Shown here in pieces: positions 5,288 to 51,681 of a stretch of DNA of 64,000 nucleotides (position 1 is the stretch's first letter; each line of letters begins with the position of its first letter). The notes beneath the pieces are model-generated. The model saw only the letters and a program-made list of their open reading frames with translations, did no database searches and was not told the DNA's origin. Both the position numbers and the translations under genes were made by a program. The stretch comes from a bacterium (GTDB lineage Bacteria; Patescibacteriota; Andersenbacteria; UBA10190; CAIZMI01), in the NCBI GenBank assembly GCA_030647555.1, contig JAUSJG010000007.1:106181-170180 (forward strand). The letters run 5' to 3'.

Positions 5288-5322
5288 ATAATGATTGATG
5301 AATGATGATTTATGAATAATGA
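5288..5322. repeat. ATG/TCA-rich palindromic gene-boundary linker (family: GAATGATGATTTATGAATAATG / rev-comp)
   Basis: Copies at 5288-5322, 5690-5722, 10786-10812, 26182-26254, 43377-43452, 51641-51678, each abutting or overlapping a start or stop codon. Confidence 0.6.
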
Positions 5323-5701
5323 AAAAAATACCAAAATTACAGTTTTTACAGACCTTAACGCATGGAAAGAATCCCACAAACTTGTCTTGCTCACATACCA
5401 ATTAACAAAAACATTTCCTAAAGATGAAATGTATGGCTTAATTAGCCAAATGAGACGAGCGGCAATTTCGATAACATCAAATATCGCGGAAGGATTTGGC
5501 AGGCAAACTTATCCTGAAAAAATCCAATTTTACTCGATTGCCAAAGGTTCATTATCGGAATTGCAAAATCAACTAATAGCTTCCAGGGACACAAATTTGT
5601 TAAATGAAGATTCTTTTCAGAACGCGTTTAAACAAAGCATTACCGCCCATAAACTCATCACGGGATTAATAAGAAGGTCGCGCGAAATTCATCAATCATA
5701 A
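5312..5701 (+). CDS. Four-helix-bundle protein (23S rRNA intervening-sequence protein family)
   Basis: Signature ITSNIAEGFGRQ...FYSIAKGSLSELQNQL typical of TIGR02436-type proteins; bounded on both sides by ATGATGATTTATGAAT-type palindromic linkers. Confidence 0.8.
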   Translation: MNNEKNTKITVFTDLNAWKESHKLVLLTYQLTKTFPKDEMYGLISQMRRAAISITSNIAEGFGRQTYPEKIQFYSIAKGSLSELQNQLIASRDTNLLNEDSFQNAFKQSITAHKLITGLIRRSREIHQS

Positions 5702-5725
5702 ATCATCATTCATAATTCACGTATC

Positions 5726-7957: not shown

Positions 7958-8107
7958 ATATTGAAAACATCCCGCCTTCAGGCGAGGCTCGCCCCGATGG
8001 GCGGCCCCCTTCGCTCCGCCAGCGGGCGGAGCTACGGGGGATTGTTTTTCTCTGATGAGAAAAACAAAAAAACCTCCGACTCCCTGGGAAGTGAAGGTTG
8101 CTACTTT

Positions 8108-8908
8108 CTATTGATAATGGAAACGTCTGTGATCATTAAACCAGGAACGAATCGCGCGCCACTCCCTTGCACCATAAAACATCAGTAGCGGATCTTGCGC
8201 GTTCCCTTCCACTTCCAGAGCATATGATTCCGAAACATCATCTTCATCCCTCAACGGATACTCACCCCGTCGATCATCATCATCGTCAAGGACATCTGTG
8301 TTGATATGCATCAGCGCTAATGCAGCATTTTCCTCACTTAAGCCCCCGATTAGCCGAAGGACAACACGCCAAAACTCCTTCGGCGATAATCCCTCACGAA
8401 AGGAAACCTTTTCCACCTGACGAAGAACTGTAGGAAGATGGTCGGACAAACACGGATCCTTCTTCGCTTTTCCAGATTCACCGAACAAATATACTTCTTC
8501 AGGAACATATTCATAAGGAGTAATCCAGACCAGCAAATTACCCAGCAACACTGTGCGTTTTTCAATTTCCAAGTCTTTAAGTCGAAAAAGGAGATAATCG
8601 GCAACAATATCCTTCGGAATACTTCCGCACATCAGCAGACCCACAAGGTCTCGATAAAGAGGTAACGAATTTTGCATGTGAGATTCCCAAACTTCGCGCG
8701 ACATCTTGTCGTATTTTTTGGGTTTTAATTTTCTTGGATACTTCCGATACTCCGCCATGATGTGCCCAAGAACCAAAGACTGTTCACCTCTTTCTCCTTT
8801 AGACAAAAGACGCATCACCGCATAACCAATGTCGGTTTCATTCCGAAAACGCGTACGACACAAGCGGTCAGCCCACTTAAAGCACCCACTATCGTTTAAA
8901 TAACTCAT
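8108..8908 (-). CDS. Hypothetical protein
   Basis: 266-aa ORF with AGGAGG SD 6 nt upstream; acidic C-terminus (DDDDDRRGEYPLRDEDD); no family recognised. Confidence 0.5.
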   Translation of the reverse strand: MSYLNDSGCFKWADRLCRTRFRNETDIGYAVMRLLSKGERGEQSLVLGHIMAEYRKYPRKLKPKKYDKMSREVWESHMQNSLPLYRDLVGLLMCGSIPKDIVADYLLFRLKDLEIEKRTVLLGNLLVWITPYEYVPEEVYLFGESGKAKKDPCLSDHLPTVLRQVEKVSFREGLSPKEFWRVVLRLIGGLSEENAALALMHINTDVLDDDDDRRGEYPLRDEDDVSESYALEVEGNAQDPLLMFYGAREWRAIRSWFNDHRRFHYQ

Positions 8909-10711: not shown

Positions 10712-11072
10712 GTGATGCTCTCATTGTATATCTACGAGAAAGAATAGGAAACATGCGGTTATTTTTCATTCAATGAACCCAGATTTTGAATGATGAATGA
10801 TGATTTATGAATACTGAACCGCGATATCGTAGGGGCGGACGTCCCCGTCCGCCCGCGTCAACAATATCCAGTTTCTAGTTTCCAAATTTGTACCGGAGGA
10901 GGGAGTCCTTTTTCACCCAAAATTTCCGCTCGCTTTGCTCGAAGGAAATTTTCGGCGAAAAAGCCGGGGTTACATAAACAACTAAAGCAGTTTAGTTGTT
11001 TATGTAACCCTTCGACTCCCACACAAGTTGATTATATATAAAAGTCCCCAAATGGGGACTTTTATATATAAG

Positions 11073-12436: not shown

Positions 12437-12467
12437 GACTCTCAAATCGAGAACGACGAACCTTTGT

Positions 12468-12509
12468 CCGATCACGGAGCGGAGCAACCTTGCTCCGCTC
12501 CGTGATCGG
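12468..12509. repeat. Solo REP-like palindrome (20-bp arms) CCGATCACGGAGCGGAGCAA-CC-TTGCTCCGCTCCGTGATCGG
   Basis: Perfect inverted repeat read directly; same GGAGCAA/TTGCTCC core as palindromes flanking the RAYT gene. Confidence 0.8.
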
Positions 12510-12550
12510 TACTGGTTGTCACGCCCGCCTTTTTTCCCTACACTTCCCGT

Positions 12551-12697
12551 ATGCCCAGTAATACAACTTCCAATTACTGGATTAATTCCTAACTCTTGAA
12601 TGAATAAATATGCACAAATTGAACTTCTTAACCTTATCTTCCGCCAGTTTTGAACGAACCGCGTTCGTTCAAATTGGAAGTTGATATACTGGGTATG
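12551..12697 (+). promoter_or_regulatory. Conserved leader element copy 1 (upstream of ugd)
   Basis: Distal GCCCAGTAATACAACTTCCAATT, internal hairpin TTGAACGAA-CCGCG-TTCGTTCAA, proximal AATTGGAAGTTGATATACTGGGT-ATG. Confidence 0.6.
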
Positions 12698-14047
12698 CCT
12701 AAAAATTCTACAAAACGCGTCGCAAAAGAACCTAAGACAAAGAAAAAGCGCATCTCCATCATCGGGACGGGTTATGTTGGATTAGTGTCCGGTGCTTGTT
12801 TGGCCGAAATCGGCCATCACGTTATTTGCGTTGACCGGCACGAGGATAAAGTGGCAAAACTTAAAAAAGGAATCAGTCCGATTTTTGAACCGGGAATTGA
12901 AGAATTAATCGCCAAAAATATCAAAGCGAAACGTTTGGAATTTACAACCGATTTGCAGAGCGCGATAAAAAACACCGACGTAATTTTCATTGCCGTTAAT
13001 ACCCCGCCACGACCGGACGGAAAAGCGGACTTGTCTTTCGTTGCATATGCCGCACGCCAAATTGCCGAAGTTTCCACAGAGTACAAAGTTGTTGTCGACA
13101 AAAGCACCGTGCCCGTCCAAACCGGCGAAAAAGTTTTAGAAACGCTTCGTTCCTACAACCCGCACGGCATTGAATTCGATGTGGTAAGTAACCCGGAGTT
13201 CTTACGTGAAGGGACGGCCATTTATGATTTCTTAAACCCGGATCGTATCGTTATCGGTACCGAGAATGAACGCGCGGAAAAAATTATGCGTGAAATTTAT
13301 GCGCCAATCAAAGCGCCGTTTATCGCCACCGATATTAATTCAGCGGAATTAATTAAACATGCGTCGAACTCTTTCTTGGCCACAAAAATTTCTTTTGCCA
13401 ACGCTTTGGCCGCCATTTGCGAATTAACTAATGCCAATGTCGAAGAAGTCACTTACGGAATGGGTTTGGATAAACGCATTGGGCCCGCCTTCTTAAAGGC
13501 CGGCGTCGGTTATGGTGGCAGTTGTTTTCCCAAGGACGTTTCTGCGTTTGTGAAAATTGCCGAAGAAATCAACTATGATTTTGGCATTCTCAAGGCTGTT
13601 GAAAAAATAAACGAAGAAGCCAAACAGAGCTTTATCAAAAAAATCGAATCCGCGCTTTGGATTGTTAAAGGAAAGACAATCGCTATTTGGGGTCTCTCCT
13701 TCAAACCCAACACCGACGATATGCGTAGCGCGCCGGCTGTAACTGTCATTAATCACTTGCGTAGTGAAGGTGCAATTATCAAAGCTTATGATCCACAAGC
13801 AATGGAAAAAGCACATAATGTGCTCGGTGACGAAAACATCACGTATGTAAAATCCGCGATGGACGCAACAATCAACGCCGACGCGCTTGTCATTATTACC
13901 GATTGGGACGAGTTCAAAAAAGCCGATTTGGAAAAAGTTCGTGCTTCCCTGCACCAGCCATTAATCATCGATGGTCGCAACATGTTCGATCCGAAAGTAA
14001 TGGAAGAAAAAGGCTTCTTGTATCATTCGGTCGGACGAGGTAAATAA
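12695..14047 (+). CDS. ugd: UDP-glucose 6-dehydrogenase
   Basis: N-terminal NAD fold ISIIGTGYVGLVSGACLA, catalytic GGSCFPKD; start placed at ATG that terminates the conserved leader element (…GATATACTGGGTATG). Confidence 0.88.
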   Translation: MPKNSTKRVAKEPKTKKKRISIIGTGYVGLVSGACLAEIGHHVICVDRHEDKVAKLKKGISPIFEPGIEELIAKNIKAKRLEFTTDLQSAIKNTDVIFIAVNTPPRPDGKADLSFVAYAARQIAEVSTEYKVVVDKSTVPVQTGEKVLETLRSYNPHGIEFDVVSNPEFLREGTAIYDFLNPDRIVIGTENERAEKIMREIYAPIKAPFIATDINSAELIKHASNSFLATKISFANALAAICELTNANVEEVTYGMGLDKRIGPAFLKAGVGYGGSCFPKDVSAFVKIAEEINYDFGILKAVEKINEEAKQSFIKKIESALWIVKGKTIAIWGLSFKPNTDDMRSAPAVTVINHLRSEGAIIKAYDPQAMEKAHNVLGDENITYVKSAMDATINADALVIITDWDEFKKADLEKVRASLHQPLIIDGRNMFDPKVMEEKGFLYHSVGRGK

Positions 14048-14063
14048 TTACTAACCAGCTTAC

Positions 14064-14829
14064 CACCTACGAGGTGGAGCAACCTTGCTCCACCTCGTAG
14101 GTGGTGCAAGGCAATAAATTTATTCCAAACAAAGAGCCTTAATTTGTGCAAGCTCTTTTTGATAATTCGCTTGATCATTTGTAAATTTTTCGTATTGTTT
14201 TCCCGAAAACGGCATCAGCCCTGAATAATCGCAAACTGGAAATTTCACACTATCGCTTTTTACATACTCTAAAAATGAAGAATATGGCCAATCGGATGCT
14301 TTCTTGACTAATCCCGCGCTAACCGGATTCAAGTGGATATAGCGCGTTAAATGCAAAAAATGATTATCGTTGCTTACATTAACACTCTGAAAACGCCCTA
14401 CCCAAAGAGGCCCCTTTCGTTCAATTTTTGTATTAAAGTAACGAGCATAAGCATTAGAAACATCAGACAGATATTTTTCAATCCCGTGCTCTTTCAATTG
14501 TTTTACGACAAGATGAAAATGTGTCGGCATTAAGCCATAACAAATGACTTGAATGGATTTATCCTTATCCGCTAACACTCGGCTTATTTCTTCTTCAATA
14601 TTTTCTTTGTGAATTTTTACATCACGTAAAAATTGAGAGTATTTCTGTCGAACACCGGCATATGTGTAATACCTGATTAAATTTTTCATATGAAAAAAAT
14701 CGCCCTCCTTTTGAAATATTCTAAACCCCGCTATGCTTTTATTCATCACATGATAAATTTCACCATTTGCTAAAATATCTTTTCGCATAAAGTTATTATA
14801 ATCCCAAAATCATCTTTGCTCCACCTACG
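14064..14829. mobile_element. REPtron-like unit: RAYT gene bracketed by REP-like palindromes sharing the core GGAGCAA-NN-TTGCTCC
   Basis: Left 40-nt palindrome CACCTACGAGGTGGAGCAACCTTGCTCCACCTCGTAGGTG (14064-14103), right hairpin TTGCTCCACCTACGAGGTGGAGCA (14806-14829). Confidence 0.6.
14120..14788 (-). CDS. IS200/RAYT-type Y1 (HUH) transposase, COG1943-like
   Basis: HUH motif PTHFHLVV and C-terminal catalytic tyrosine context RYIHLNPVSAGLV...DWPYSSF typical of REP-associated tyrosine transposases; flanked by palindromes at 14064-14103 and 14806-14829. Confidence 0.75.
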   Translation of the reverse strand: MRKDILANGEIYHVMNKSIAGFRIFQKEGDFFHMKNLIRYYTYAGVRQKYSQFLRDVKIHKENIEEEISRVLADKDKSIQVICYGLMPTHFHLVVKQLKEHGIEKYLSDVSNAYARYFNTKIERKGPLWVGRFQSVNVSNDNHFLHLTRYIHLNPVSAGLVKKASDWPYSSFLEYVKSDSVKFPVCDYSGLMPFSGKQYEKFTNDQANYQKELAQIKALCLE

Positions 14830-14949
14830 AGGTGGAGCAGGTTGACAAAACCACCCCAAAACGCAACACTGCCCTGTTGCGTCAATGTTGACGTGACGGC
14901 TGTGCGCATACCACAGTCATGCACATTTCTACTTCAGGGAGACATCGCC

Positions 14950-15463: not shown

Positions 15464-15580
15464 GTAGGGGCAATTCCAGCCGTCGCTACCCACTTCGCTC
15501 ACCCTCCGCATAAAGCTACGGAGTGACGCAGTAAAGCTTCGAGGGTTAAGAAAGCTATGGCCGGCAGGCATGAATTGCCC
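15464..15580. repeat. GTAGGGGCAATTC-bounded inverted-repeat element (long variant with internal insertion)
   Basis: GTAGGGGCAATTCCAGCCGTCGCT...AAAGCTATGGCCGGCAGGCATGAATTGCCC; short variants at 32368-32423, 11198-11223, 22535-22560, core only at 19381-19410. Confidence 0.65.
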
Positions 15581-15636
15581 ACATTTATTTTTTACACAAA
15601 TATATAAATCGAAAATATTCAACAAAAAAACAATGG

Positions 15637-15726
15637 TCAATAATTCCATATACTATATACCAAATACCATATACAAATCTAAATATAAGAATAGTTAGTA
15701 ATTTAGAGGAGTATTATAGGAAACTA
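15637..15726 (-). repeat. Post-stop conserved element, copy B (sense to nucleotidyltransferase gene; stop codon embedded)
   Basis: Same ~90-nt consensus, >85% identity to copy A/C. Confidence 0.7.
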
Positions 15727-16404
15727 CCGCCCTGACAAATATCTCTCTGCTTCCGCCACTTCTTCCAGTGTATTCGCCGGCAACCACAAATCCGTCAATT
15801 CCGGATAAAACTTTTTTCCTTGTTTTATTAAAACATTCACCATATCTGTTGCTTCATATTCACCGCGCGACGAACGAGGTGTTTCAATTTGCATAAATTC
15901 CGGCTGCAGTTTTGCCGCACCCACCCAGGATAAATCGGAAATAAATTCTTTGGGTTTTTCCACCATATCGCTGACCGTTCCGTCCTCATTTAATTTCAAC
16001 ACGCCAAATCTTTCCGGATGTTCCACACGTCGCGCCAAAAGTGCCCACTCGCGTTGCACCAGTTTTTGTAAACCGGTTGCGCCATAAATATCATCACCAT
16101 ACAAAAGCAGAAATGGTCGGTTAATTACAGATGCCGCACATTTCACCGCGTGTCCGGTTCCGAGTTGTTGCTCTTGCACAACATAGGAAATTTTCTTACC
16201 AAAAGCATTATCTCCGTACAATTGTTTAATCATCTCGCCTTTGTAACCAATCACAAAAACAACCTCGGTTACTTCCGGCGGAAGATTTTTTAATGTGTAT
16301 TCAACAACCGGTTTTCCACAAACCGGCACCAACGGTTTCGGCACTTCTTCCGTAATGGGACGCAAACGCTTTCCTAAGCCCCCCGCGAGAATAACAGCTT
16401 GCAT
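15724..16404 (-). CDS. Sugar-phosphate nucleotidyltransferase (glucose-1-phosphate thymidylyl/uridylyltransferase-like)
   Basis: N-terminal MQAVILAGGLGKRLRPIT...KPLVPVCGKP signature of NTP_transferase family. Confidence 0.75.
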   Translation of the reverse strand: MQAVILAGGLGKRLRPITEEVPKPLVPVCGKPVVEYTLKNLPPEVTEVVFVIGYKGEMIKQLYGDNAFGKKISYVVQEQQLGTGHAVKCAASVINRPFLLLYGDDIYGATGLQKLVQREWALLARRVEHPERFGVLKLNEDGTVSDMVEKPKEFISDLSWVGAAKLQPEFMQIETPRSSRGEYEATDMVNVLIKQGKKFYPELTDLWLPANTLEEVAEAERYLSGR

Positions 16405-19270: not shown

Positions 19271-19456
19271 GATCAGTCGTCTTTGCGAGGTGCTTCAGCA
19301 CCGAAGCAATCTCCGTAAAAATAATCATCGCGTTGAGATTGTCGCGCCTCGCCCATTGCAAACAATGGTCGATGGCTCCGGCCGTCGCTAAAGCTATGGC
19401 CGGCAGGCGCAATGACTACACCCATATTATTTTTACAAAATTGATCCATGCCGTTT

Positions 19457-22417: not shown

Positions 22418-22622
22418 CCAAGTGTCAAACAACAGCCCCGCCCCGACCAACCGGTCCCGGCGGTATTTTTTTGATTTTTTCGCAAAAAAATCAATCCCCC
22501 ATAGCTTTAGCGACGGGGGATACTTCTCATCCACGTAGGGGCGATTCATGAATTGCCCCAGATTGTTACCGAAACACCCAATAAATCTGATTGATTATCT
22601 CAAACAAACATACCCAATAAAT

Positions 22623-22655
22623 CCATATACTATATACCAAATACAATATACAGAT
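22623..22655 (+). repeat. Partial copy (5' 33 nt) of the post-stop element
   Basis: CCATATACTATATACCAAATACAATATACAGAT. Confidence 0.6.
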
Positions 22656-26179: not shown

Positions 26180-26254
26180 CGCTTGAATAATGATTTACGA
26201 TTTATGATTAAAGAATACGTCGCCGAATTTCGTCGATTCATAAATCATCAATCG

Positions 26255-27685
26255 TCATTCATTCTTCGGAAACAATACCGGCGGGTTTGTGATTTTTCCG
26301 TCACTGTCTATAGAGTCCGAAATTGTCTTCGCTGTTTTTGGCATTACCTCTTTTATCGCCCTCGCAATTAAATCAATTGCGTTTAATACCTGTTGGATTG
26401 TTTGAGCACGTTGTACTTCATCCGCATTTTTCCACGGTGCTTTTGCATCAAGATACACATTCGCCTTACGCGCCCAATTCAAAATACGCTCAAAGATTTT
26501 TTCTAATGATTCATCATTATACATATCTTTTATATCTTGCGCGTCATAAATCTCGCTTGTTTCACTGTCAACGTGTTTGACACTAAATTTTTCCGCCAAA
26601 TTAAAAGTTCTTCTTACAAGATTACCAAGCACATTAGCCAGTTCATTATATTTTTCGTCAAACCGATCAACAGCAATGTCGCCTGAATTTCCAAACGGAA
26701 GCGCTGTAATAATTAAGTAGCGCGCAACGTCTGAACCGTATTTATCAACAATATCAATCGGGTCGATAACATTTCCCAAGCTCTTACTCATCTTTTGACC
26801 ATTGATTGTAAAAAATCCGTGAATGGAAAGCGATTTGGGTAATTCTAACCCCAGCGCCAATAAAATCGCTGGCCAATAAACGGCATGAAATTTTAGAATC
26901 TCTTGCGCCATTACCTGTACATCCGCCGGCCAGAATTTTTTCAGTTGCTCATCATTTTCCGAACCATAGCCCAAGGCGGTAACATAATTTAACAACGCAT
27001 CCAGCCAGACATAAGCCACTTGAGTGGAATCAAACGGAAGTTCAATTCCCCACTTGAGGCGTTCTTTTGATCTGGAGATAGAGAAATCTTCCAGTCCTTG
27101 CTGAAATAGCCCCAAAACTTCATTTTTCCGCTCTGTGGGTAAAATTAATATCCGATCGGCCTCAATCGCACTCTTAATTTCCGGCAAAAATTTAGCGAGG
27201 TTGAAGAACCAATTTTTTTCTTCCACTACCACCGGTTTCTTTTGGTGTAGCGGTTCCAAACCGTTCTCGTCCAAATCTTTTTCGGTTACAAAGGCTTCAC
27301 ACCCAGTGCAATAAAGACCTGTATAGGTTTTTTCGTAAATAACGCCTGTTTCTTTGAGTTTGTTTAACGCGTAAATAACGCCTTGTTCATGCCGCTTGTC
27401 AGTAGTACGAATAAAATCTGAATAACCAATATCAAGTTTTTGCCAACAATCTTTAAAGCTCTGGGCAATTTCATCAACAAATTGTTGAGGTTCTTTTCCA
27501 GCAACAGTAGCAGTGTCGGCCACTTTCGCGCCATGTTCATCGGTACCGGTGAGAAAAAAAATATCCTCGCCGCGCCCTTTATGCAAACGCGCCAAAACAT
27601 CCGCCGCAATGGTCGTATAAGCATGACCAATGTGAGGCTTGCCATTGGCGTAGTAGATGGGCGTAGTTATTGAATAGCGATCCAT
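26255..27685 (-). CDS. metG: Methionyl-tRNA synthetase (short form)
   Basis: HIGH region PHIGHAYTT, KMSKS (QKMSKSLGN), CxxC zinc knuckle CTGC. Confidence 0.92.
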   Translation of the reverse strand: MDRYSITTPIYYANGKPHIGHAYTTIAADVLARLHKGRGEDIFFLTGTDEHGAKVADTATVAGKEPQQFVDEIAQSFKDCWQKLDIGYSDFIRTTDKRHEQGVIYALNKLKETGVIYEKTYTGLYCTGCEAFVTEKDLDENGLEPLHQKKPVVVEEKNWFFNLAKFLPEIKSAIEADRILILPTERKNEVLGLFQQGLEDFSISRSKERLKWGIELPFDSTQVAYVWLDALLNYVTALGYGSENDEQLKKFWPADVQVMAQEILKFHAVYWPAILLALGLELPKSLSIHGFFTINGQKMSKSLGNVIDPIDIVDKYGSDVARYLIITALPFGNSGDIAVDRFDEKYNELANVLGNLVRRTFNLAEKFSVKHVDSETSEIYDAQDIKDMYNDESLEKIFERILNWARKANVYLDAKAPWKNADEVQRAQTIQQVLNAIDLIARAIKEVMPKTAKTISDSIDSDGKITNPPVLFPKNE

Positions 27686-28314: not shown

Positions 28315-28357
28315 TAAATTGAATCAAGGTCGAATTATACGAGAAAACTACTATTAT

Positions 28358-28453
28358 CCATATACAATATACCAAATACTATATACAAATCTAAATAATG
28401 AAACAGAAAGGAATTTAGAGGTTGTTATAGGAAACTACTCCCTGCCCCCCCTA
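28358..28453 (-). repeat. Post-stop conserved element, copy C (sense to AI-2E transporter gene; stop codon embedded)
   Basis: Same consensus. Confidence 0.7.
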
Positions 28454-29497
28454 CGCCGAAAGCTCTTCTTCTTTTTCGCTTGGCAACAGATCTGTAATGA
28501 ACAACGAAATAATTGTTGCGATTGGTACGGCAAGCACCACGCCGACAATCCCGGCTAATTTGGCACCAACCAAGACGGCCAAAATTGTCGTGAGTGGATT
28601 CAAACCAACCGCGCGACGCATAATGTTTGGCACCAGCACATTTGATTCAATTTGCTGAATAATTAAAAACATCACAATCACAATTAAACCTACGAGCCAC
28701 GAATTTGTAAACCCGAGCAAAACCGCGGGTATCGCCGATATTGTAGGACCAATTACCGGAACAAACTCCGCGAAAAACGTTAATAAAGCGATAGCCAGCG
28801 CGTATGGAACACCCAGGGCCCACAAACTAATAAACACCATTATTCCCATAATCAAGCCTAAAACCATTTGCGCCAAAAGCCAGTGGCCGATTTTTTGTTG
28901 TGCTTTTTTAATTATTCTTACGGTATACGGACGATGCTCCAGTGGAACGACAGAACACACAAACGCGTATAAACTGTCCCGCGAAATCACCAGATAAAAA
29001 GAAATTACAAACGTCAGCAAGATCGAGAAAATACTGCCAAAAACAGTTTTCGTAGTTACAATAATTCCATTCGACGTTTGTCCGAGAAACTGACCGACAT
29101 CCAATAACCCTTTTTGGAGAGACGGAACAAAATCTGTCGCCCCAAACGCAACACCCGCCCGCCCAAGCATCGACATTAATTGTTCATAAATGGCCGGAAG
29201 ATTTTCGGTTAATGCCTGAATTTCAGCGATCAGCGGTGGGACAAGAATAGTAATCGTGATAACTATCAACGATACAAAAAAAGCATAGGCTGTCAATACC
29301 GAAATAGCCCGCGGAATTCGAAACCGCTGAAGTCGCGTGGCAAGAGGTTCCAGTGCCGACGCAATCAAAACCGCCACCAACAAAATAAGCAAAAGATCTC
29401 GAATAAACCACAAGAACCAAATCGTCAGTACAAAAAACAATAATCGAAAAAGCGTCTTTGCGGAAATATCGATTGTCATAAAATTTTGTGTGCTCAT
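28451..29497 (-). CDS. AI-2E family transporter (UPF0118)
   Basis: 8 TM topology and length typical; 4-nt overlap with upstream peptidase gene. Confidence 0.65.
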   Translation of the reverse strand: MSTQNFMTIDISAKTLFRLLFFVLTIWFLWFIRDLLLILLVAVLIASALEPLATRLQRFRIPRAISVLTAYAFFVSLIVITITILVPPLIAEIQALTENLPAIYEQLMSMLGRAGVAFGATDFVPSLQKGLLDVGQFLGQTSNGIIVTTKTVFGSIFSILLTFVISFYLVISRDSLYAFVCSVVPLEHRPYTVRIIKKAQQKIGHWLLAQMVLGLIMGIMVFISLWALGVPYALAIALLTFFAEFVPVIGPTISAIPAVLLGFTNSWLVGLIVIVMFLIIQQIESNVLVPNIMRRAVGLNPLTTILAVLVGAKLAGIVGVVLAVPIATIISLFITDLLPSEKEEELSA

Positions 29498-30783
29498 ACT
29501 TCTTTGGTTAGTAATTTATTTAACTCATTTTTTGTGTCGTTTGGCATAATGGCGGCAATACGCAGATATTCCGACGCGAGATATTTTTTAGCGACACGCT
29601 GAATATCGGCCGGTGTTACCGCGTCAAAACTCTTAAACACGTCTTCTAATGACAAAATACGTCCGGTCAGTGTCTCTTGTCCACCAACAAACTGCGCTAC
29701 CGCATTCGTCGACTCAAGACGAATTAAGAGGTGCCCCTTGATATTTTCTTTGGCTTTTTTAAGTTCAATGACACCAACCGGCACTTCGCGAATTTTTTTG
29801 TATTCTTTCAAAATAACCGACAGGGCTTTTTCAACATTGCTCGGATCAACACCAATTTGCGTCGCAACATAACCGGTATCGATAAAGTGTTCAGCCGCGG
29901 TATGCACGGAATACGCTAATCCACGCCTTTCTCGTACCTCAATAAAAAGACGGCTGGACATACTGCCCCCAAGAATTGTACCCAGCAAATCGACAGCACA
30001 ACGATCATTATCCGTTAAGGAGGTTCCACGTCCACCGACAATCACGTGTGCTTGATCCGTTTTCTTTACTTTCAAAGAAACCAAGTCTGTTCCCCAGACA
30101 CCATCAAACTCCCTGGTTTTTACCGGTGTTTGTTTTGGTAGCCCACTAAATTGCTTTTTCAGCATTGCCAAGGCTTTCCCTGGTTCAATATTTCCCGCGA
30201 TACAAACGACCATGTTCGGTGCGCCGTATTGTTGATTGCGATATTTCACAATGCGTTTTTTGGTAATCGTACTGATAATTTCTTTTGTTCCGATAATTTT
30301 CCTGGCCAAATCATGTTCTCCAAATAATTGCTGCTCAAATTGCTCCCCGATGGAATCCTGCGGTGAATCTTCATACATATTCATTTCTTCGATAACAACA
30401 CCCCGTTCGCGATCAATTTCTTTTTGCTGAAACAACGGATTGATCAACATATCACCAATAACATCCAATAATAATTTTGTATGCTTGGCGGATGCCTTGG
30501 CGTAAAATGCTGTCATCTCTTTCGAGGTAAAAGCATTAAACTCCCCACCCACTTCATCTAACGCTTCGGAAATAATCAGTGTTGTTGGTCTTTTTTTCGA
30601 ACCCTTAAAAAACAAGTGCTCAAGAAAATGTGAGACACCCGATTCCTCTGCGTCTTCATAACGCGAACCGGTAGCCACAAATGCCATCACCGTCACTGTT
30701 CCCGTCCCCTTCATTGGGAGAGCTAATAATCTTAATCCTGATGGTGCTACGGCACGATGAATGTCAAATAATGAATGGTTCAT
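29494..30783 (-). CDS. M16-family zinc peptidase (insulinase-like)
   Basis: Inverted zinc motif HFLEHLFFKGS (HxxEH) near N-terminus. Confidence 0.85.
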   Translation of the reverse strand: MNHSLFDIHRAVAPSGLRLLALPMKGTGTVTVMAFVATGSRYEDAEESGVSHFLEHLFFKGSKKRPTTLIISEALDEVGGEFNAFTSKEMTAFYAKASAKHTKLLLDVIGDMLINPLFQQKEIDRERGVVIEEMNMYEDSPQDSIGEQFEQQLFGEHDLARKIIGTKEIISTITKKRIVKYRNQQYGAPNMVVCIAGNIEPGKALAMLKKQFSGLPKQTPVKTREFDGVWGTDLVSLKVKKTDQAHVIVGGRGTSLTDNDRCAVDLLGTILGGSMSSRLFIEVRERRGLAYSVHTAAEHFIDTGYVATQIGVDPSNVEKALSVILKEYKKIREVPVGVIELKKAKENIKGHLLIRLESTNAVAQFVGGQETLTGRILSLEDVFKSFDAVTPADIQRVAKKYLASEYLRIAAIMPNDTKNELNKLLTKEV

Positions 30784-32156
30784 AGAGTTTCTGAAAATTG
30801 ATCAGTAAAAAAGGAGTTAAGCTCCGTAATCGATACGCGTTTTTGTTCCATCGAATCACGCTCTCTAACTGTGACAGATTGATCATTCAAGGAATCATGA
30901 TCGACGGTGATACAGAATGGAGTACCGATTTCGTCTTGGCGACGATAGCGTCTGCCAATGGATCCACTCTCATCAAACTGTACACGGAATGACCCCCGCA
31001 ACGCTGTGGCAATCTCCCTTGCTTTTTTTACAAGGTCATCATTGTTAGAAAGTAGTGGGAAAATGGCCACCTGAACCGGTGCCAATACTTTAGGCAAACG
31101 CAATACCAATCGTTGTTCTCCATCCTTATTTTCTTCACAGAGCGCGTTACTTAAAATCGCCAGTGTCACACGATCGGCACCAACCGACGTCTCAATAATC
31201 CATGGCAGATATTTTTCTTTGGTTTCTTCATCAAAGAAAGACAAGTCTTTGCCGGAAAATTCACTGTGGCGTTTCAAATCCCAATCACCACGATTATGAA
31301 TCCCTTCGATTTCTTTCCAGCCAAAGGGCATTTTATATTCGATATCAAAAGCAGCTTTAGCATAGTGCGCCAGTTCACCCTTGCCGTGTTCGTGAAAACG
31401 CAACATCTTTTCGTCAAACCCCAAACTCGCGTACCATTTCGACCGTTCAGTTTTCCAAAATTCAAACACTTTATCGGCGTCTGCCGGCTTAACAAAATAT
31501 TGCATTTCCATTTGTTCAAATTCCACCGTGCGGAAGGTGAAATTACCAGGCGTCACTTCATTGCGAAAAGCCTTACCAATTTGCGCAATACCAAATGGCA
31601 CCTTCAAGCGCATCGCATTGGCAACCAATTGCGCGTTAACGTAAATTCCTTGCGCCGTTTCCGGACGCAGATAAACAGTGCTTCCTTCGTTTTCAACAGC
31701 ACCCAAATTAGTAGTGAACATTAAATTGAACTGCCTTGGAGTGGTAAATTTGTTTTTTGCACCGCAACCGGGGCAACCTTTTGTGTTTACCGCCACCAAT
31801 ACGGCATCTGCATCATCTTTAATCGGCAAATATTTATCATCTCCTAAAAGATGATCTACACGAAAACGTTTGTGACACTGCTGGCATTCCACCAGCGGAT
31901 CCGTAAAATTACTCACGTGCCCGGAAGCTTCCCAAACTTTTGGATGCATCATGATGGCCGCGTCGAGCCCAACAATGTTATCAAAACCCTGCGTCATCGT
32001 CTTCCACCAATGGGCTTTTATATTATTCTTTAAGGCGACACCTAGAGGTCCATAATCGTAGGATGCCGCGGCGCCACCATAAATTTCGGAGGATTGAAAG
32101 ATGAAACCACGCCGTTTCGCGAGGGAAATAATTTGATCTAATGAAGTAGCGGGCAT
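30780..32156 (-). CDS. glyQS: Glycyl-tRNA synthetase, alpha2 dimeric type
   Basis: N-terminal LDQIISLAKRRGFIFQSSEIYGG and class II motifs; start ATG is the terminal triplet of the conserved leader element. Confidence 0.9.
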   Translation of the reverse strand: MPATSLDQIISLAKRRGFIFQSSEIYGGAAASYDYGPLGVALKNNIKAHWWKTMTQGFDNIVGLDAAIMMHPKVWEASGHVSNFTDPLVECQQCHKRFRVDHLLGDDKYLPIKDDADAVLVAVNTKGCPGCGAKNKFTTPRQFNLMFTTNLGAVENEGSTVYLRPETAQGIYVNAQLVANAMRLKVPFGIAQIGKAFRNEVTPGNFTFRTVEFEQMEMQYFVKPADADKVFEFWKTERSKWYASLGFDEKMLRFHEHGKGELAHYAKAAFDIEYKMPFGWKEIEGIHNRGDWDLKRHSEFSGKDLSFFDEETKEKYLPWIIETSVGADRVTLAILSNALCEENKDGEQRLVLRLPKVLAPVQVAIFPLLSNNDDLVKKAREIATALRGSFRVQFDESGSIGRRYRRQDEIGTPFCITVDHDSLNDQSVTVRERDSMEQKRVSITELNSFFTDQFSETL

Positions 32157-32297
32157 CCCAGTATATCAACTTTCAATTTGAACGAATTCGATTCGTTCAA
32201 AAATTACTCTTATCAAAGCTAAATTTTTTTCATTTTTCATGATGTTTATCGGCATAAAAGTGAGATCTAAAAATTGAAAGTTGTATTACTGGGCATG
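32154..32297 (-). promoter_or_regulatory. Conserved leader element copy 2 (upstream of glyQS)
   Basis: Same architecture; hairpin TTGAACGAATCGAATTCGTTCAA; C-G to T-A compensatory change between distal/proximal arms. Confidence 0.6.
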
Positions 32298-32367: not shown

Positions 32368-32423
32368 GGGGCAATTCCAGCCGTCGCTAAAGCTATGGCC
32401 GGCAGGCATGAATTGCCCCTACA
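32368..32423. repeat. GTAGGGGCAATTC-bounded element, short variant
   Basis: GGGGCAATTCCAGCCGTCGCTAAAGCTATGGCCGGCAGGCATGAATTGCCCCTAC. Confidence 0.65.
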
Positions 32424-34982: not shown

Positions 34983-35079
34983 GGTATAACACTTTACCTC
35001 AATCGAATTCCACTTGTCGAATCAACACATTTGGGGTTGAAAAATAATCCATCATAAATCGAAACCATTGCCTACGAAG

Positions 35080-35245
35080 GGCTTGGTAATTAATAAACGC
35101 TCCATATTATGTCCAATCCATCTCCAAATACAACTGCTTCTCAATCAAAAACCTTTCAACGTACGTACAGTACGTTTCAAGTTTTTTTCAATCAAAGACA
35201 GCTGTCTTTGAAGCGCATTGAACATAATATTGGAGCGTTTATTAA
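35080..35245. repeat. MITE-like element with 33-bp near-perfect terminal inverted repeats GGCTTGGTAATTAATAAACGCTCCA(A)TATTATGT
   Basis: Arms at 35080-35112 and 35212-35245 differ by a single base; interior contains two short palindromes; no target-site duplication seen. Confidence 0.6.
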
Positions 35246-35255
35246 TTACCAAGCC

Positions 35256-35477
35256 CTATCGTGTAATAATCTTGTCACGAATATCCCAGAGTAAGAGAGT
35301 AACCGAAAAAATCATCGTGATTACGAAGAACTCTGTCAATCCACCAAAACCAACACCGAGCACCTCTGTCTGGTTGGTAAGACCTAATACAATACGAATC
35401 ATATAGCCCAAAACACCCAAACCCAACAGTAATTTAATTAATTGGTTTCTACGCAGATCTGTTGAAAATACTTTCAT
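35256..35477 (-). CDS. Possible small membrane protein (73 aa)
   Basis: Two hydrophobic helices; short, no SD. Confidence 0.3.
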   Translation of the reverse strand: MKVFSTDLRRNQLIKLLLGLGVLGYMIRIVLGLTNQTEVLGVGFGGLTEFFVITMIFSVTLLLWDIRDKIITR

Positions 35478-41074: not shown

Positions 41075-41244
41075 GGATCCAAATCCTTCCTATGTCCGGC
41101 ATTTCAGCCGGAGCGGTATGTAGTTGTCAATAGTACAAAACGGCTAATTGTACTACAATTTAAAACAATTGTCAAGGGAGTTGTGGGTAACCGCTCACAG
41201 GTCGAAGTAATCTGAACATTAAGGTTCGGCATTTACCAACGTAC

Positions 41245-41284
41245 CGATCACGGAACGGAGCAAGGTTGCTCCGTTCCGTGATCG
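41245..41284. repeat. Solo REP-like palindrome CGATCACGGAACGGAGCAA-GG-TTGCTCCGTTCCGTGATCG
   Basis: Near-identical to 12468-12509 copy with compensatory changes in both arms (GAGCGG to GAACGG, CCGCTC to CCGTTC). Confidence 0.8.
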
Positions 41285-41439
41285 AACGGAGCGGTTGCGC
41301 GGATTACAATTCACTCCACTTCGCCCACTTTTCCTGATAAGGGGTATATTCTATTTATGATTATCCTTAACCTGTAAGCAGTTAATCCCCGTTTTCCACA
41401 CAAAAAATTTACTGAAAAACGTTCTCAATATTCTTTCCT

Positions 41440-42829: not shown

Positions 42830-43449
42830 GTATGCGAAAAAGAGCGAGCAAGAACAATAAGGTGGGACTGGATGTGGTCTCATTTGGAGTGAAACCATAC
42901 TGGAGCAGACTTGTTTCCCTGCGGAAGATGGGCTGTCTACTCTGTAACACTTGCGGGCTACTTTCAAACCCGAAAGCACATCCGGCGTTCTTGCCCGCTC
43001 TCGAAATATGCTAAAAGAACTACGCTCAACCATTGTAAACCCTGCTTTTGCAATGTCAAACAAACAAGAAAACACCCATGAGCGATGTCATGGGTGGGTA
43101 TAAGGTGCGGGCGCGGAGAGAAGAACTAGCAACTGGAGAAAGAGAAATGGTACACAGCTTTGTGTCCGACCGACCAGAATGACATCAAGCTGTCTGGCGT
43201 GCCAACACTGAGCGAACTCTGCATAGCTGGCAAACCCACACTGAAACTTCCAATCGACGCAAACCCAGTGTTGGCACCCATTTCTTGTCCCACTGTGGAC
43301 AACCCCTCCGCGACCCGCATACTTGCCAAAGAACCTATTTACAAAATACTCCCACCACAATGATTGTCAAGCGAACGAATATGATTAATGATTTACGAAT
43401 GATGATTTATGAAAAACGATTCGGTTTAAGACTCATAAATCCTAAATCA

Positions 43450-46329
43450 TCATTCCTGTCGAATTCCTGTTTCCATACCAAATAAAATTTCTTTTGCGCC
43501 CACACGATTTTTAAACTCGTCCGCGAATGTAGTGAAAACTTTTTTGTTAACCTCCGTATCTTCCAGCGTCAAAACAATCCGATCGCCCACATTCAAACCT
43601 GCTTCTTGACGCATACGTTGAACCTGACGCACCAAATTGCGCAAATCGCCTTCAAGTTTAAGCTCTTCCGAGAGTTTCGTAGCAAGACCGATAAAATATT
43701 CTTGTTCGTTAAAGCGCAAAGATTTTTTTACATCGTCCGGAGGAGTGGCAAGTTTAACTTCTTTTACATTCAACTCATCTTGTAAAACCTCCAGCAAACC
43801 AGCCGATAGGCCAACATTTTCCGAAACCCACATCACAGAAAGTGGCTGTTTGATGGCGAGATTATTTTCCTTGCGAATCGCGTGCGCAAATGAAGCAACG
43901 GCACGCAGTTTTTCCATATCACTCAACAAATCCGCATTGTTCTTTATAAATTCTTTATCGACAACCGGATAATCTTCCAAATGCACCGATTCTTTAAATT
44001 CTCCCTTGCCTCCTCTTTTCAATTCCTGATAAATGTTTTCGGAAATAAATGGCACAATGGGCGCAATCGCTTTTGCGGTTTTTAACAAGACAACATACAA
44101 AGTAGCCAACGCCTGCTTATCGCCACTGAAAATCCGTTCACGACTGCGACGAATATACCAAGTGGATAAATCATTAATAAATTCTTCGACCGTTCTTACC
44201 GCCGGAGGAATGTTGTATGTTTCAATCCCGGTAGCAACCGCTTGAACTGTCTGCTCCAAACGCGCATTTATCCAACGGTCCAAAATGTTGTCTGATTTTG
44301 CATCCGACAATTCGAAATCGTGTTCCACGGCATAAGTCAAGAAATAGACCACCGAATTCCAAAGAATATTTAGAACGCCACGTACTTTATTAGTCATCTC
44401 GGTCTCACTCAAATTTGCGCTTTCACCCAACATTAACGGTGAGGCCATGAAATAAAGTCTCAACGCATCACCACCCAAAGTATTTAGAACACCCTTGGTG
44501 TCGGGATAATTATTATAACTTTTACTCATCTTACGCCCATCCGTCCCGGCCAACACACCGGTCACCACGACATTCTTAAATGGCGCGCGATCAAACAACG
44601 CCGTACTGATCCGAAAAAGGATTTGGAACCAGGCGCGAATCTGTCCCGTATATTCAATAATGAAATCAGCGGGGAAACCTTTTTCAAAAACTTCCTTGTT
44701 TTCAAACGGATAATGATACTCGGCAAAAGGAACGGACCCGGAATCCAGCCAAACATCCAAAATATCGACGATACGGTGAAATTCTTTACCGTCTTTTTTC
44801 AGAATAATTTTATCCATAATATCGCGATGGAAAGAAAGTGGCCGATCGCCAAAGAAATAGGATTTTTTATCCCCTTCAACTTTTTCCGTCACCTGCTCCG
44901 TATACTGGCGTAACTCCGCGATACTGCCGATGACAATTTCCTCGCCATCTTCACTACGCCAAATCGGCATCACTGTGCCCCAATAGCGTTTGCGACTGAT
45001 ACACCAATCCGGCGCCCCTTGTACAACTTCACGGAAACGTCCGTCTTTAAAGACTTCGGGAACCCACTGCACATCTTGGTTAAGCTCCAAAATTCTCTTG
45101 TTGATTTCTTTTAGATTCACAAAATAGGCTTCTTGCGCCACATAAATAAGCGGACTTTTACTGCGATAGAAAGGCAAACGATGCTTATAAAGTTCCTTGC
45201 GATAAAGTTGCCCCGTTTTTTCCATTTCTTCCGCGATTAACACAGAAGCCTTGCGAATATACACCCCACGCCAAGGATCGATCAACATCTTCCCTTCTTC
45301 ATCAATATCTGAAAGATCAGATAACCCAAATTGCAATCCCAAGTTATAATCCATTTCGCCAAACGCGGGGGCGACATGCAGAACACCCGTACCTTCCGTA
45401 TTTGTTACGCCATCAGAAGAATAAACTTTATAATCGGCCGATTTGCATTTGTCGACAAAATTATTAAACAGCGGTTCATACGCGATTCCTAGTAACGATT
45501 CCCCACTGAACCTTTGCAAAACATTTACCAATTTTTCTTGAAAGGAGTTTTTGACTAAATCTTCCGCAAGAATAAATAAGGTATTTTCTGATTCCGCCAA
45601 GACGTAAGTAAAAGCCGGGTTAACCGCGAGTGCAAAATTTGAGGGCAACGTCCAAGGCGTTGTCGTCCAAGATAAGAAATAGACAGGGAGTCCGTTCGCC
45701 ACATCTTCAAAACGTTCGTCTTTCACTTTAAACTTTACAAACACGCTTAAATCTTCCACTTCCTGGTAATTGTCCGGATCCATCGCTACTTCAAATTCCG
45801 AGACCGGCGTTGAAGTCTCCGTGGAATAAAGCGACGTTCTTTTACCGCGATAAATCAAGCCTTTTTCGTACATTTGCTTGAAAGCCCAAATAACTGATTC
45901 CCCAAATTGTCCGTCCATTGTTTTATAGGCATGATCCAAATCCACCCAACGACCCACTTTGTTGATATACCAACGCCAATCGCTAATTTGCTCTTCCACA
46001 AACTCGCGACACAATGCCACATATTTATCCACACCAAAATCTTCCACTTGCTTACGATTGCGAATCCCGTGTTTTTCATTAACCTTCGCCTCAATCGGCA
46101 AGCCGTGACAATCCCAACCCCAAACACGGCGCACCCTTTTTCCTTTCATTGTCCAATATCTAGGCACTAAATCTTTGGCGATCGAAACCAGCAAGTGCGC
46201 GTAGTGCGGACTGCCACTCACAAACGGCGGACCATCTACAAAAACAAACCGATTATCCTCCGGTCGACTTTCAACCGACTTTTCAAAAATTTTATTTTCT
46301 TGCCAAAATTTCAAAGTCGCATCTTCCAT
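43450..46329 (-). CDS. ileS: Isoleucyl-tRNA synthetase
   Basis: HIGH-like SPHYAHLL, KMSKS (RKMSKSYNN), CP1 editing domain; start set at MEDATLKFW ATG because longer ORF runs into REP-type repeats. Confidence 0.9.
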   Translation of the reverse strand: MEDATLKFWQENKIFEKSVESRPEDNRFVFVDGPPFVSGSPHYAHLLVSIAKDLVPRYWTMKGKRVRRVWGWDCHGLPIEAKVNEKHGIRNRKQVEDFGVDKYVALCREFVEEQISDWRWYINKVGRWVDLDHAYKTMDGQFGESVIWAFKQMYEKGLIYRGKRTSLYSTETSTPVSEFEVAMDPDNYQEVEDLSVFVKFKVKDERFEDVANGLPVYFLSWTTTPWTLPSNFALAVNPAFTYVLAESENTLFILAEDLVKNSFQEKLVNVLQRFSGESLLGIAYEPLFNNFVDKCKSADYKVYSSDGVTNTEGTGVLHVAPAFGEMDYNLGLQFGLSDLSDIDEEGKMLIDPWRGVYIRKASVLIAEEMEKTGQLYRKELYKHRLPFYRSKSPLIYVAQEAYFVNLKEINKRILELNQDVQWVPEVFKDGRFREVVQGAPDWCISRKRYWGTVMPIWRSEDGEEIVIGSIAELRQYTEQVTEKVEGDKKSYFFGDRPLSFHRDIMDKIILKKDGKEFHRIVDILDVWLDSGSVPFAEYHYPFENKEVFEKGFPADFIIEYTGQIRAWFQILFRISTALFDRAPFKNVVVTGVLAGTDGRKMSKSYNNYPDTKGVLNTLGGDALRLYFMASPLMLGESANLSETEMTNKVRGVLNILWNSVVYFLTYAVEHDFELSDAKSDNILDRWINARLEQTVQAVATGIETYNIPPAVRTVEEFINDLSTWYIRRSRERIFSGDKQALATLYVVLLKTAKAIAPIVPFISENIYQELKRGGKGEFKESVHLEDYPVVDKEFIKNNADLLSDMEKLRAVASFAHAIRKENNLAIKQPLSVMWVSENVGLSAGLLEVLQDELNVKEVKLATPPDDVKKSLRFNEQEYFIGLATKLSEELKLEGDLRNLVRQVQRMRQEAGLNVGDRIVLTLEDTEVNKKVFTTFADEFKNRVGAKEILFGMETGIRQE

Positions 46330-46502
46330 CGCCGGGAAAGATTGCTTGGAGGGTAAATGAAACCCACACTTCGCCCACCCTTCGCATAAAGCTACGGCGT
46401 GGCGCGGTAAAGCTTCGCGGGGCAAGTTTTCTTTTCCGTCAGTCATACGCAATGAGCATAGGAAAATAAACGCGTCTAGGCAAGCCGTGAACACCAGCAC
46501 CC

Positions 46503-46568
46503 ATCCCCCGTCGCTAAAGCTATGGGGGATTGTTTTTCTTTTGCGAAAGAAAAACAAAAAAACCGCGT
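46503..46568. repeat. Composite hairpin module: ATCCCCCGTCGCTAAAGCTATGGGGGAT + TTGTTTTTCTTTTGCGAAAGAAAAACAA + A7 + ACC + third hairpin
   Basis: Other copies 2781-2871, 8030-8073, 22469-22525 (inverted). Confidence 0.65.
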
Positions 46569-50771: not shown

Positions 50772-50916
50772 ACCCAGTATATCAACTTCCAATTTGAGCG
50801 ATTTCGAATCGCTCAAAAGAAGAACCGGTTAATGTTAAAACATTCCTCGGGCCCATACACAAAACCAATAGTTCTCGCTGAAATTTGAAATTGGAAGTTG
50901 TATTACTACTGGGCAT
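50769..50916 (-). promoter_or_regulatory. Conserved leader element copy 3 (upstream of argS)
   Basis: Hairpin TTGAGCGATTCGAAATCGCTCAA (covarying), proximal arm ends in start ATG. Confidence 0.6.
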
Positions 50917-51591: not shown

Positions 51592-51681
51592 CAAATACAT
51601 CCAACCCACCGACCCTGTCAAAGAGCCGGTTTTTATTACCTTTCCAAAATCATCAATCATCATTCATAATTCATTACAGTT

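Follow-up and report, generated by a model that had tools for sequence, protein, structure and literature searches.

The Correia or NEMIS elements of Neisseria are miniature inverted-repeat transposable elements (MITEs) that are co-transcribed with neighbouring genes, and they are close in form to the feature described here. This feature lies in a 64,000-nucleotide stretch of an Andersenbacteria genome (Patescibacteriota; contig JAUSJG010000007.1, positions 106,181 to 170,180), hereafter the window, where a miniature of 137–141 nucleotides (nt) from arm to arm stands in three copies directly before ugd, glyQS and argS. Both kinds of element are non-coding and of similar size (~100–150 bp) and have terminal inverted repeats with target duplications at their borders; a genome holds many copies, which lie close upstream of genes and form a long hairpin in the transcript. 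Their sequences, however, are unrelated. The duplication is (T)ATG here and TA in the Correia elements, the copies occupy the start codon itself and not a looser upstream position, and the parent encodes a GIY-YIG nuclease instead of a DDE transposase. Correia elements are substrates of RNase III, a processing that may be proposed here by analogy only. The window feature is a non-autonomous miniature, without an intact open reading frame (ORF), of a family of small mobile elements. As a whole, it is likely to be a MITE-like derivative of an undescribed GIY-YIG element that captures the start codons of probably leaderless genes lacking a Shine-Dalgarno motif. A literature search, which covered the literature incompletely, found no description of the element.

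Other described systems share some of these properties. The palindromic elements of Rickettsia are also palindromic selfish DNA inside gene boundaries, tolerated since the frame and function of the host gene are preserved, but they are translated in frame within proteins and have no known encoded enzyme, whereas the insert here lies between duplicated start codons and does not alter the host protein. Free-standing homing endonuclease genes (phage T4 seg, I-TevI family) are likewise small selfish GIY-YIG ORFs wedged between host expression signals and a gene. They differ in having appended DNA-binding modules, one cognate target allele and neither terminal repeats nor target duplications, while the protein of the present family is a bare Slx1-branch domain of 101 residues found at many unrelated sites. 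The minimal GIY-YIG proteins of the UPF0213 family (BH0048, 1zg2; EF2693, 1ywl) gave the best sequence and fold matches and also have no auxiliary domains and no UvrC-type Asn; in contrast to them, the gene here stands between inverted repeats, varies in presence and absence at its class of sites and has given rise to miniatures. In the palindrome-associated transposable elements (PATEs) of the IS200/IS605 family, the repetitive extragenic palindromes (REPs) with their REP-associated tyrosine transposases (RAYTs) and the attC sites of integrons, helices are conserved in structure and not in sequence, as in the helix P2 described below, and the conserved unpaired bases of helix P1 resemble the extrahelical bases of attC. 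These systems depend on HUH or tyrosine enzymes, and IS200/IS605 elements have neither target duplications nor terminal inverted repeats, both of which were present here. The only Y1 transposase of the window, a RAYT-like IS200-type protein (PF01797; 14120–14788, minus strand), is flanked by 41-nt REP-like palindromes (CCACCTACGAGGTGGAGCAACCTTGCTCCACCTCGTAGGTGG) that differ from the arms of the element.

The three window copies had the same arms and adjacent hairpin and each ended at the ATG of its gene, as the original prediction had stated. The gap from the proximal arm to the ATG was 0–1 nt for ugd (12695), glyQS (32156, minus strand) and argS (50771, minus strand), which were identified by NCBIfam as UDP-glucose 6-dehydrogenase, glycine-tRNA ligase and arginine-tRNA ligase. 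In the sense of the gene, each copy consisted of (T)ATG, the distal arm CCCAGTA(GTA)ATACAACTTYCAATT, ~70 unconserved nt, a 9-bp hairpin, the proximal arm AATTGRAAGTTGATATACTGGG, an optional T and the gene ATG; the arms were 22 nt each. An ATG thus stood directly 5′ of the distal arm in all three copies, with a −10-like hexamer 6–7 nt further upstream. The features are as follows.

12516–12544, plus strand: putative host promoter of ugd, with a −35 hexamer TTGTCA (12516–12521), a 17-nt spacer and a −10 hexamer TACACT (12539–12544) 6 nt upstream of the left ATG
12550–12553, plus strand: left target duplication TATG; the empty site at the locus of a Ugd orthologue (L116) reads ..cccctATGACT..
12551–12553, plus strand: ATG that was originally the start codon of ugd and now begins a relic ORF of 13 codons (MPSNTTSNYWINS) with its stop at 12590–12592
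12554–12575, plus strand: left terminal inverted repeat, 5′ strand of P1 (CCCAGTAATACAACTTCCAATT), equal to codons 2–8 (PSNTTSN) of the nuclease ORF in full-length elements
12576–12649, plus strand: unconserved interior of the miniature, without a nuclease ORF
12650–12672, plus strand: P2 hairpin (TTGAACGAA, loop ccgcg, TTCGTTCAA), adjoining the right arm; its counterpart in full-length copies is the long-range pairing of GCCAAACGCC with GGCGTTTGGC
12672–12693, plus strand: right terminal inverted repeat, 3′ strand of P1 (AATTGGAAGTTGATATACTGGG), containing the relic nuclease stop TGA (12682–12684)
12694–12697, plus strand: right target duplication TATG, in which ATG 12695–12697 is the current start of ugd (12695–14047)
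32154–32296, minus strand: copy 2 at glyQS, with the left ATG (32296–32294), left arm (32293–32272), P2 hairpin (32200–32178), right arm (32178–32157) and glyQS ATG (32156–32154)
32309–32304, minus strand: host −10 hexamer TACTAT of copy 2, 7 nt upstream of the left ATG
50769–50916, minus strand: copy 3 at argS, with the left ATG (50916–50914), left arm with a GTA insertion (50913–50889), P2 hairpin (50816–50794), right arm (50794–50773), T (50772) and argS ATG (50771–50769)
50928–50923, minus strand: host −10 hexamer TATACT of copy 3, 6 nt upstream of the left ATG; empty sites are present at the ArgS orthologue loci L111–L115

The proximal arm occurred exactly three times in the window, and the distal arm was its inverted partner with three mismatches. 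Matches to the arm pattern numbered 5–6, far above the 0.00–0.01 expected in shuffles, and no further arm copy was found in the 64-kb window at up to 5 mismatches. The arms were imperfectly complementary, with an invariant 3 × 3 mismatch (ATA opposite ATA) between stems of 7 and 12 bp, and the argS copy carried the GTA insertion within its distal arm. The stems of the internal hairpin differed by a compensatory change (TTGAACGAA/TTCGTTCAA and TTGAGCGAT/ATCGCTCAA), and a C-G pair between the arms was switched to T-A in the glyQS copy; both differences, already pointed out in the prediction, were real. The interiors of the three copies, also said to differ, could not be aligned with each other. 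A tblastn comparison of the nuclease consensus with the window gave nothing significant, and the window held no nuclease ORF; the relic ORFs of the copies ranged from 9 to 44 codons, with 13 codons in copy 1 and 9 in copy 2. Both helices were part of the minimum-free-energy RNA structure of all three copies (−41 to −50 kcal/mol, z −5.0 to −7.3). The arrangement of the glyQS copy was identical on an independent Logan contig. The mechanically called ORF of ugd ran upstream to a TTG at 12650 (12650–14047, plus strand), inside the P2 hairpin. The exact 450-residue Ugd starting from ATG 12695 was absent among the protein-search matches, the best of which had 93% identity; this may mean that the insertion leads gene callers to place the ugd start elsewhere.

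The parent element was recognized from the same arms. All evidence given here is computational. Species-representative genomes, one per species, were scanned with the exact 20-mer of the right arm, nothing being required downstream, which gave 29 loci. In 27 of them the distal arm lay 90–370 nt upstream, and nearly all of these complete elements came from metagenome-assembled genomes (MAGs) of Patescibacteria (Saccharibacteria, Doudna-, Yanofsky-, Portnoy- and Magasanikbacteria, and others); the remaining two (Pelagibacteraceae and Pyrinomonadaceae) had no distal arm and were about as many as the calculated chance matches. The elements fell into size classes of 111–149, 192–236 and 309–312 nt, with one of 390 nt that contained a nested copy. 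When metagenomes were searched with internal peptide motifs alone, so that the arms were left unconstrained, at least 549 loci were obtained, mostly fragments, 80 of which were retained; the same arms bounded elements of ~310 bp in hundreds of Patescibacteria contigs.

The ~310-nt class was a single ORF that ran from the ATG before the distal arm (MPSNTT[S/F]N...) to a TGA inside the proximal arm (...GI[G/E]S*). The arms were the ORF termini (MPSNTTS.., ..FGxGS*) of a GIY-YIG protein, both in three of the scanned loci (L018, L023 and L029) and in the 80 metagenome loci. In 59 of 68 full-length copies the frame was uninterrupted between the captured ATG and the canonical TGA. Codon 9, which directly precedes the domain, was ATG or GTG in 62 of the 68, so that an internal start is also possible. 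Of the 27 miniatures, 14 were in frame and 7 were open to the canonical stop; an open relic ORF as a rule in miniatures, as translational coupling would need, was rejected on this count. One copy (L031) carried a different palindromic insert of ~45 nt in its 3′ tail (~368–411), by which the nuclease ORF was lengthened to 106 codons.

The copy number was three in the 64 kb of the window and reached five matches per MAG. Some miniatures formed subfamilies with common interiors at several loci of one genome (L003/L021; L016/L024/L025). Viral contigs scanned for the right arm gave no match, and in the searches made the family was almost confined to Patescibacteria (Candidate Phyla Radiation, CPR) genomes. 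Two typical miniatures, L003 and L021, came from CAZUFD01, labelled 'uncultured Gammaproteobacteria', and had interiors like that of a Magasanikbacteria copy (L022), which reflects either a wrong taxonomic label or binning, or a transfer outside Patescibacteria.

The encoded protein of ~101 residues matched the GIY-YIG domain (Pfam PF01541, E 1e-16). The protein search gave at least 512 clusters of relatives, most of them ~101 residues long; among 120 relatives listed, the sequences mostly began with MPSNTTS.. and ended with ..FGxGS, and those named were called GIY-YIG nuclease or 'excinuclease ABC subunit C' and came from Patescibacteria. Residues Tyr14, Tyr25, Gly27, Arg35, Glu38 and Glu71 were invariant across 35 sequences. 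The domain and the Tyr, Tyr, Arg and Glu residues of the GIY-YIG superfamily were thus present, and catalysis is predicted. In the predicted structure residues 1–7 were disordered. The closest sequences and predicted folds were UPF0213 protein BH0048 (1zg2), 1ywl and the Slx1–Slx4 structures, and not the I-TevI branch; by sequence and predicted fold, the protein is assigned to the minimal Slx1/UPF0213 branch. Slx1-type enzymes are structure-specific and cleave branched and stem-loop DNA, consistent with the titles of the matched structures. The nuclease core had a ratio of nonsynonymous to synonymous changes (pN/pS) of 0.19 with a pS of 0.77, which indicates an enzyme under purifying selection. 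The pS was only 0.07 in codons 2–9 and 0.165 in codons 93–101, and therefore the arms appear to be constrained as nucleic acid. Dunin-Horkawicz et al. (2006, PMC1564403) described the UPF0213/Slx1-like branch as consisting of the domain only and as inherited mainly by vertical descent.

Two helices were defined in the full-length elements. P1 is formed by the two arms, imperfect terminal inverted repeats of 22–25 nt interrupted by the invariant ATA/ATA. P2 is formed by GCCAAACGCC, in the DAKRR codons, and GGCGTTTGGC, just before the right arm, and becomes a local hairpin in the miniatures; a helix abutting the right arm was present in the predicted fold of most miniatures, including all three window copies, with quite different sequences. 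Covariation was judged by direct pair counting on 69 independent full-length copies instead of a covariance model. The 28 proposed pairs were paired in 95.5% of cells, compared with 25–41% when the partner strand was slid. Changes on both sides were observed in 16 of the 28 pairs, in 76 cells against 16.7 ± 3.4 in shuffles (0/500), so that the covariation first noticed between the window copies generalises to the family; the pyrimidine/purine position of the arm that had been flagged matched perfectly in 30 of 30 elements. Examples were the change of CCCAGTA/TACTGGG to CCCCGTA/TACGGGG in P1 of 17 copies and GCGAGACGC/GCGTCTCGC in P2. A single subfamily event as the source of the pair switches was rejected; the switches were scattered on a neighbour-joining tree of the nuclease core (at least 13 A-T/C-G changes at one pair), a weak tree based on saturated sites. 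The pairing may act in the sense RNA, in single-stranded DNA or as a symmetric recognition of the ends by protein.

Orthologous loci were compared for evidence of insertion. Ugd orthologues of 93% and 88% identity had TTGTCA-N17-TACACT-N6-ATG followed directly by codon 2 (L116 and L117), whereas the window had the identical promoter and then the element; an 84% orthologue from the same set (L116–L118) had a more diverged junction that was equally element-free. The loci of ArgS orthologues (82%, 76% and 64% identity) were also without the element. One of them, L111, reads ..gctataaatgctaCACTaaagctATGCAAAAC.., and L112–L115 had a related TACACT-N6-ATG junction; the window argS showed the same upstream sequence as L111, then ATG, the 141-nt element and T, and then ATGCAAAAT. 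These empty sites at ugd and argS indicate that the copies are insertions. As judged from these junctions, the ugd copy is either younger than the split from the 93%-identical relative or was precisely lost there, and it must have arrived already as a miniature.

The flanks at canonical sites were TATG/TATG in 74 cases. Duplications with other sequences, and insertions of elements beside and into each other, including tandem arrays (L067 and L070), were also observed.

L019, 1646–1719: duplication CTTG around a 74-nt copy inside the ORF of another element
L069, 506–581: duplication TTGA, inside the right arm of another element
L089: duplication TTTT, intergenic
L025: duplication TGTA, two nt past an ATG; the final G of the element recreates a GTG start
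L006, L053, L063 and L104: duplication ATGA

The window copies showed every testable property of a MITE. They were short and non-coding with terminal inverted repeats; they had (T)ATG on both sides, with clean 4-bp duplications elsewhere in the family, and were polymorphic with empty sites; and they were multi-copy, with ends common to a longer coding element whose GIY-YIG protein would mobilise them. MITE-type inverted-repeat termini, which the original prediction had named only as its second reading, thus proved essentially correct.

The site preference was determined from a catalogue of 116 elements. An ATG followed the right arm within 0–1 nt in 107 of them, and 72 of the ORFs that followed were complete, with a median of ~220 residues. 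Their functions were unrelated (ribosomal protein L1, GyrA, RecJ, GreA, a GTPase, a PfkB kinase, a response regulator and glycogen synthase). Among the 27 elements found without bias, 25 were placed exactly at the ATG, one was offset by 2 nt and one lay between an AGGA motif and the ATG (L012). Three tiny copies lay away from start codons. A Shine-Dalgarno-like motif preceded the left ATG at only 3 of 92 sites, and a −10-like hexamer was located within 3–12 nt of it at 54 of 92, with a peak at 6–7 nt; random ATGs gave 26% and no peak. Beyond (T)ATG, the target showed only a mild preference for C at +4/+5 and A/T richness upstream. The hosts are therefore probably leaderless genes, to judge from these motifs, and the element would capture both their promoter and their start codon. 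By our own estimate, neutral intergenic positions outnumber start codons ~100:1, and chance insertion followed by purifying selection seems insufficient to explain the bias.

The −10, 6–7 nt, ATG architecture was common at other window genes. Starts with a −10-like hexamer 6–7 nt before the ATG and no Shine-Dalgarno motif were seen at 4019, 14788 (minus strand), 21967 (minus strand), 42036 (minus strand) and 59563, and starts of the GGAGG type at 8908 (minus strand), 54044 (minus strand) and 61944. The genome appears to mix both modes of initiation.

The following course of events is proposed. The element proper begins at CCC and has no start codon of its own at the left end, and the flanking duplication of 3–4 bp is nearly always the (T)ATG start codon of a host gene without a Shine-Dalgarno motif. 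Host transcription would start at the A of the ATG. The left ATG, still under the putative host promoter, opens the nuclease frame, and the right ATG restores the host gene 9–10 nt after the nuclease stop inside the right repeat. This short distance makes termination-reinitiation a plausible way to translate the host gene in full-length copies; adjacent window genes overlap by ATGA at 29494–29497 and 30780–30783. The nuclease may mobilise both full-length and miniature copies by way of the folded P1–P2 structure or the repeats, and the structure-specificity of Slx1-type enzymes would explain why the structure of P2 rather than its sequence is conserved. In the mRNA, P1 may loop the insert out and keep the flanking initiation signals adjacent. 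Any effect on ugd, glyQS and argS would be a side effect of the insertion and not a dedicated control circuit.

Several points weigh against this reading. No GIY-YIG enzyme is known to be a transposase, and the literature search found none acting as one. The chemistry that would give a duplication of 3–4 bp lacks an explanation, and the length of the duplication was irregular: the right T was mostly absent where the left −1 base was not T, so that the duplication seems to be 3 or 4 bp. Leaderless transcription is read from sequence motifs, and the start-codon bias could partly reflect survivorship rather than targeting. Pairing in the sense RNA was neither supported nor opposed by the balanced counts of G·U (29) and A·C (24) cells. 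With relic ORFs of 13 and 9 codons, translational coupling cannot account for how ugd and glyQS are expressed. No support was obtained for very recent bursts of full-length copies at several loci, since the protein found identically on at least 24 contigs (P0072) was always at one locus, dprA-GIY-murG-grpE.

One alternative is compatible with the mobile-element origin and differs in what maintains the helices, namely host selection for P1 and P2 as an RNA device, which would fold the insert out or be cleaved by RNase III and so return the host AUG to a leaderless-like or Shine-Dalgarno-proximal context. This is possible, if on balance unlikely. The essential glyQS and argS tolerate a 140-nt insert without a Shine-Dalgarno motif, the arms of the miniatures were intact while their interiors were unrelated, and Correia elements offer an analogy as RNase III substrates. 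Leaderless initiation is known to be sensitive to the length of the leader and to how accessible the start codon is (PMC8459731), which makes an RNA role of P1 in looping out or processing an attractive possibility. The sole direct hint is L012, where the element lies between the AGGA motif and an ATG 9 nt downstream of that motif and would be workable only if looped out. On the other side, there was no excess of G·U over A·C, the tiny copies at non-genic sites kept the same arms with no host gene at stake, and the intact arms of the ugd copy need no long-term selection because the insertion is young, its site being empty in the 93%-identity orthologue.

A passenger role of the GIY-YIG gene, or its being a classical free-standing homing endonuclease, with copies spread through repair of double-strand breaks or moved by an unlinked transposase, is improbable. 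GIY-YIG enzymes are best known as homing endonucleases, and the protein had weak matches to a group I intron endonuclease model and to phage homing-endonuclease families. Homing, however, needs homologous flanks, whereas the copies front unrelated genes with 3–4-bp duplications and terminal inverted repeats, and the protein, which has no DNA-binding module, resembles Slx1/UPF0213 more closely than I-TevI. In addition, all 27 right arms of the unbiased set paired with a left arm within 390 nt, and therefore no larger element has these ends.

An outward promoter in the right arm (TGaTATACT with a GGG discriminator), which would express the host gene as a new leaderless mRNA, is quite improbable. 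TGATATACTGGG does resemble an extended −10 element with a discriminator, and native window genes use a −10 hexamer 6–7 nt before the ATG. The candidate was rejected on spacing, as the hexamer ends 3–4 nt before the ATG instead of 6–7 nt, and on the change to TATACG in 17 of the 69 full-length copies, in which the critical final T is lost; this change covaries with the left arm, so that the pairing and not the −10 identity is constrained. Such a promoter would also leave the conservation of the left arm unexplained.

A dedicated cis-regulatory RNA leader (riboswitch, T-box-like or protein-binding) that sequesters the start codons of ugd, glyQS and argS, which the original prediction had favoured as a ligand- or protein-responsive element of aminoacyl-tRNA synthetase and sugar-nucleotide genes, is very improbable: both helices covary, the folds of the window copies are stable and P1 takes in part of the host AUG, but the element is absent from the same promoter–gene junction of ugd and argS orthologues (64–93% identity) and precedes genes of no single pathway (L1, GyrA, RecJ, GreA, a kinase, a response regulator), its interior is unconserved with neither a candidate ligand pocket nor a conserved unpaired core, its arms are nuclease ORF termini with target duplications, and Rfam scans of the copies at gathering and E-value thresholds gave no family and only hairpin-like sub-threshold miRNA matches.

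Other repeats of the window were recorded. The palindromes of the RAYT gene and related ones lie at 14063–14103, 14821–14839, 12466–12512 and 41241–41287; one of the related ones is just upstream of the ugd promoter, in a region that differs in L116 and lacks this palindrome there. The ORF 5312–5701 encodes a '23S rRNA intervening-sequence protein' (PF05635, E 3.8e-36) and is enclosed by 32-nt inverted repeats (TGATTGATGAATGATGATTTATGAATAATGAA; 5292–5719). Arm-only pairs or single arms of this repeat abut gene starts or ends at 26184–26267, 43381–43455, 10787–10818 and 51641–51676, and the ORF with its repeats may represent a second family of small cassettes that has given rise to miniatures. 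An intergenic repeat family with CCATATACTATATACCAAATACCATATACAAAT occurs in both orientations with 84–93% identity (2634–2731, 15604–15731, 22581–22655 and 28316–28421). Modular GC-rich repeats built on ..GTCGCTAAAGCTATGG(CCGGCAGGC or GGGGATT).. are at 2804–2849, 8030–8072, 15467–15569, 19377–19408, 22461–22521, 32368–32407 and 46367–46560, one of them ~70 nt upstream of the glyQS copy. A perfect 27-nt inverted repeat (AGGGCTTGGTAATTAATAAACGCTCCA; 35078–35104 and 35231–35257) encloses 126 nt in an intergenic region and may be a MITE of another family.

Tentatively, and with more doubt than belief, the family may be put forward as a new class of transposable element and the smallest autonomous one (~310 bp), in which a minimal Slx1-type GIY-YIG nuclease would recognise the folded P1–P2 structure and target leaderless starts with a borrowed promoter and ATG, and the terminal helix would loop the insert out of the mRNA. 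In size, the element is a fraction of the smallest insertion sequences. If the nuclease mobilises the elements, GIY-YIG would join the DDE, HUH, serine, tyrosine and Cas1 enzymes as a catalyst of transposition. Hundreds of CPR annotations as "GIY-YIG nuclease family protein" or "excinuclease ABC subunit C" are probably element-borne, and the miniatures can mislead gene callers, as in the extension of ugd to the upstream TTG at 12650. In a phylum that is uncultivated, the insertions point to putative leaderless promoters, and they raise the question of how an AUG that has been moved 140–310 nt away from the 5′ end and lacks a Shine-Dalgarno motif can still be used by essential genes. If the proposed reading is true, it shows how selfish DNA can persist in genomes as compact as those of Patescibacteria: an element that inserts at a start codon and duplicates it would gain expression, the host gene would stay intact, and the host could lose the element only by precise excision.

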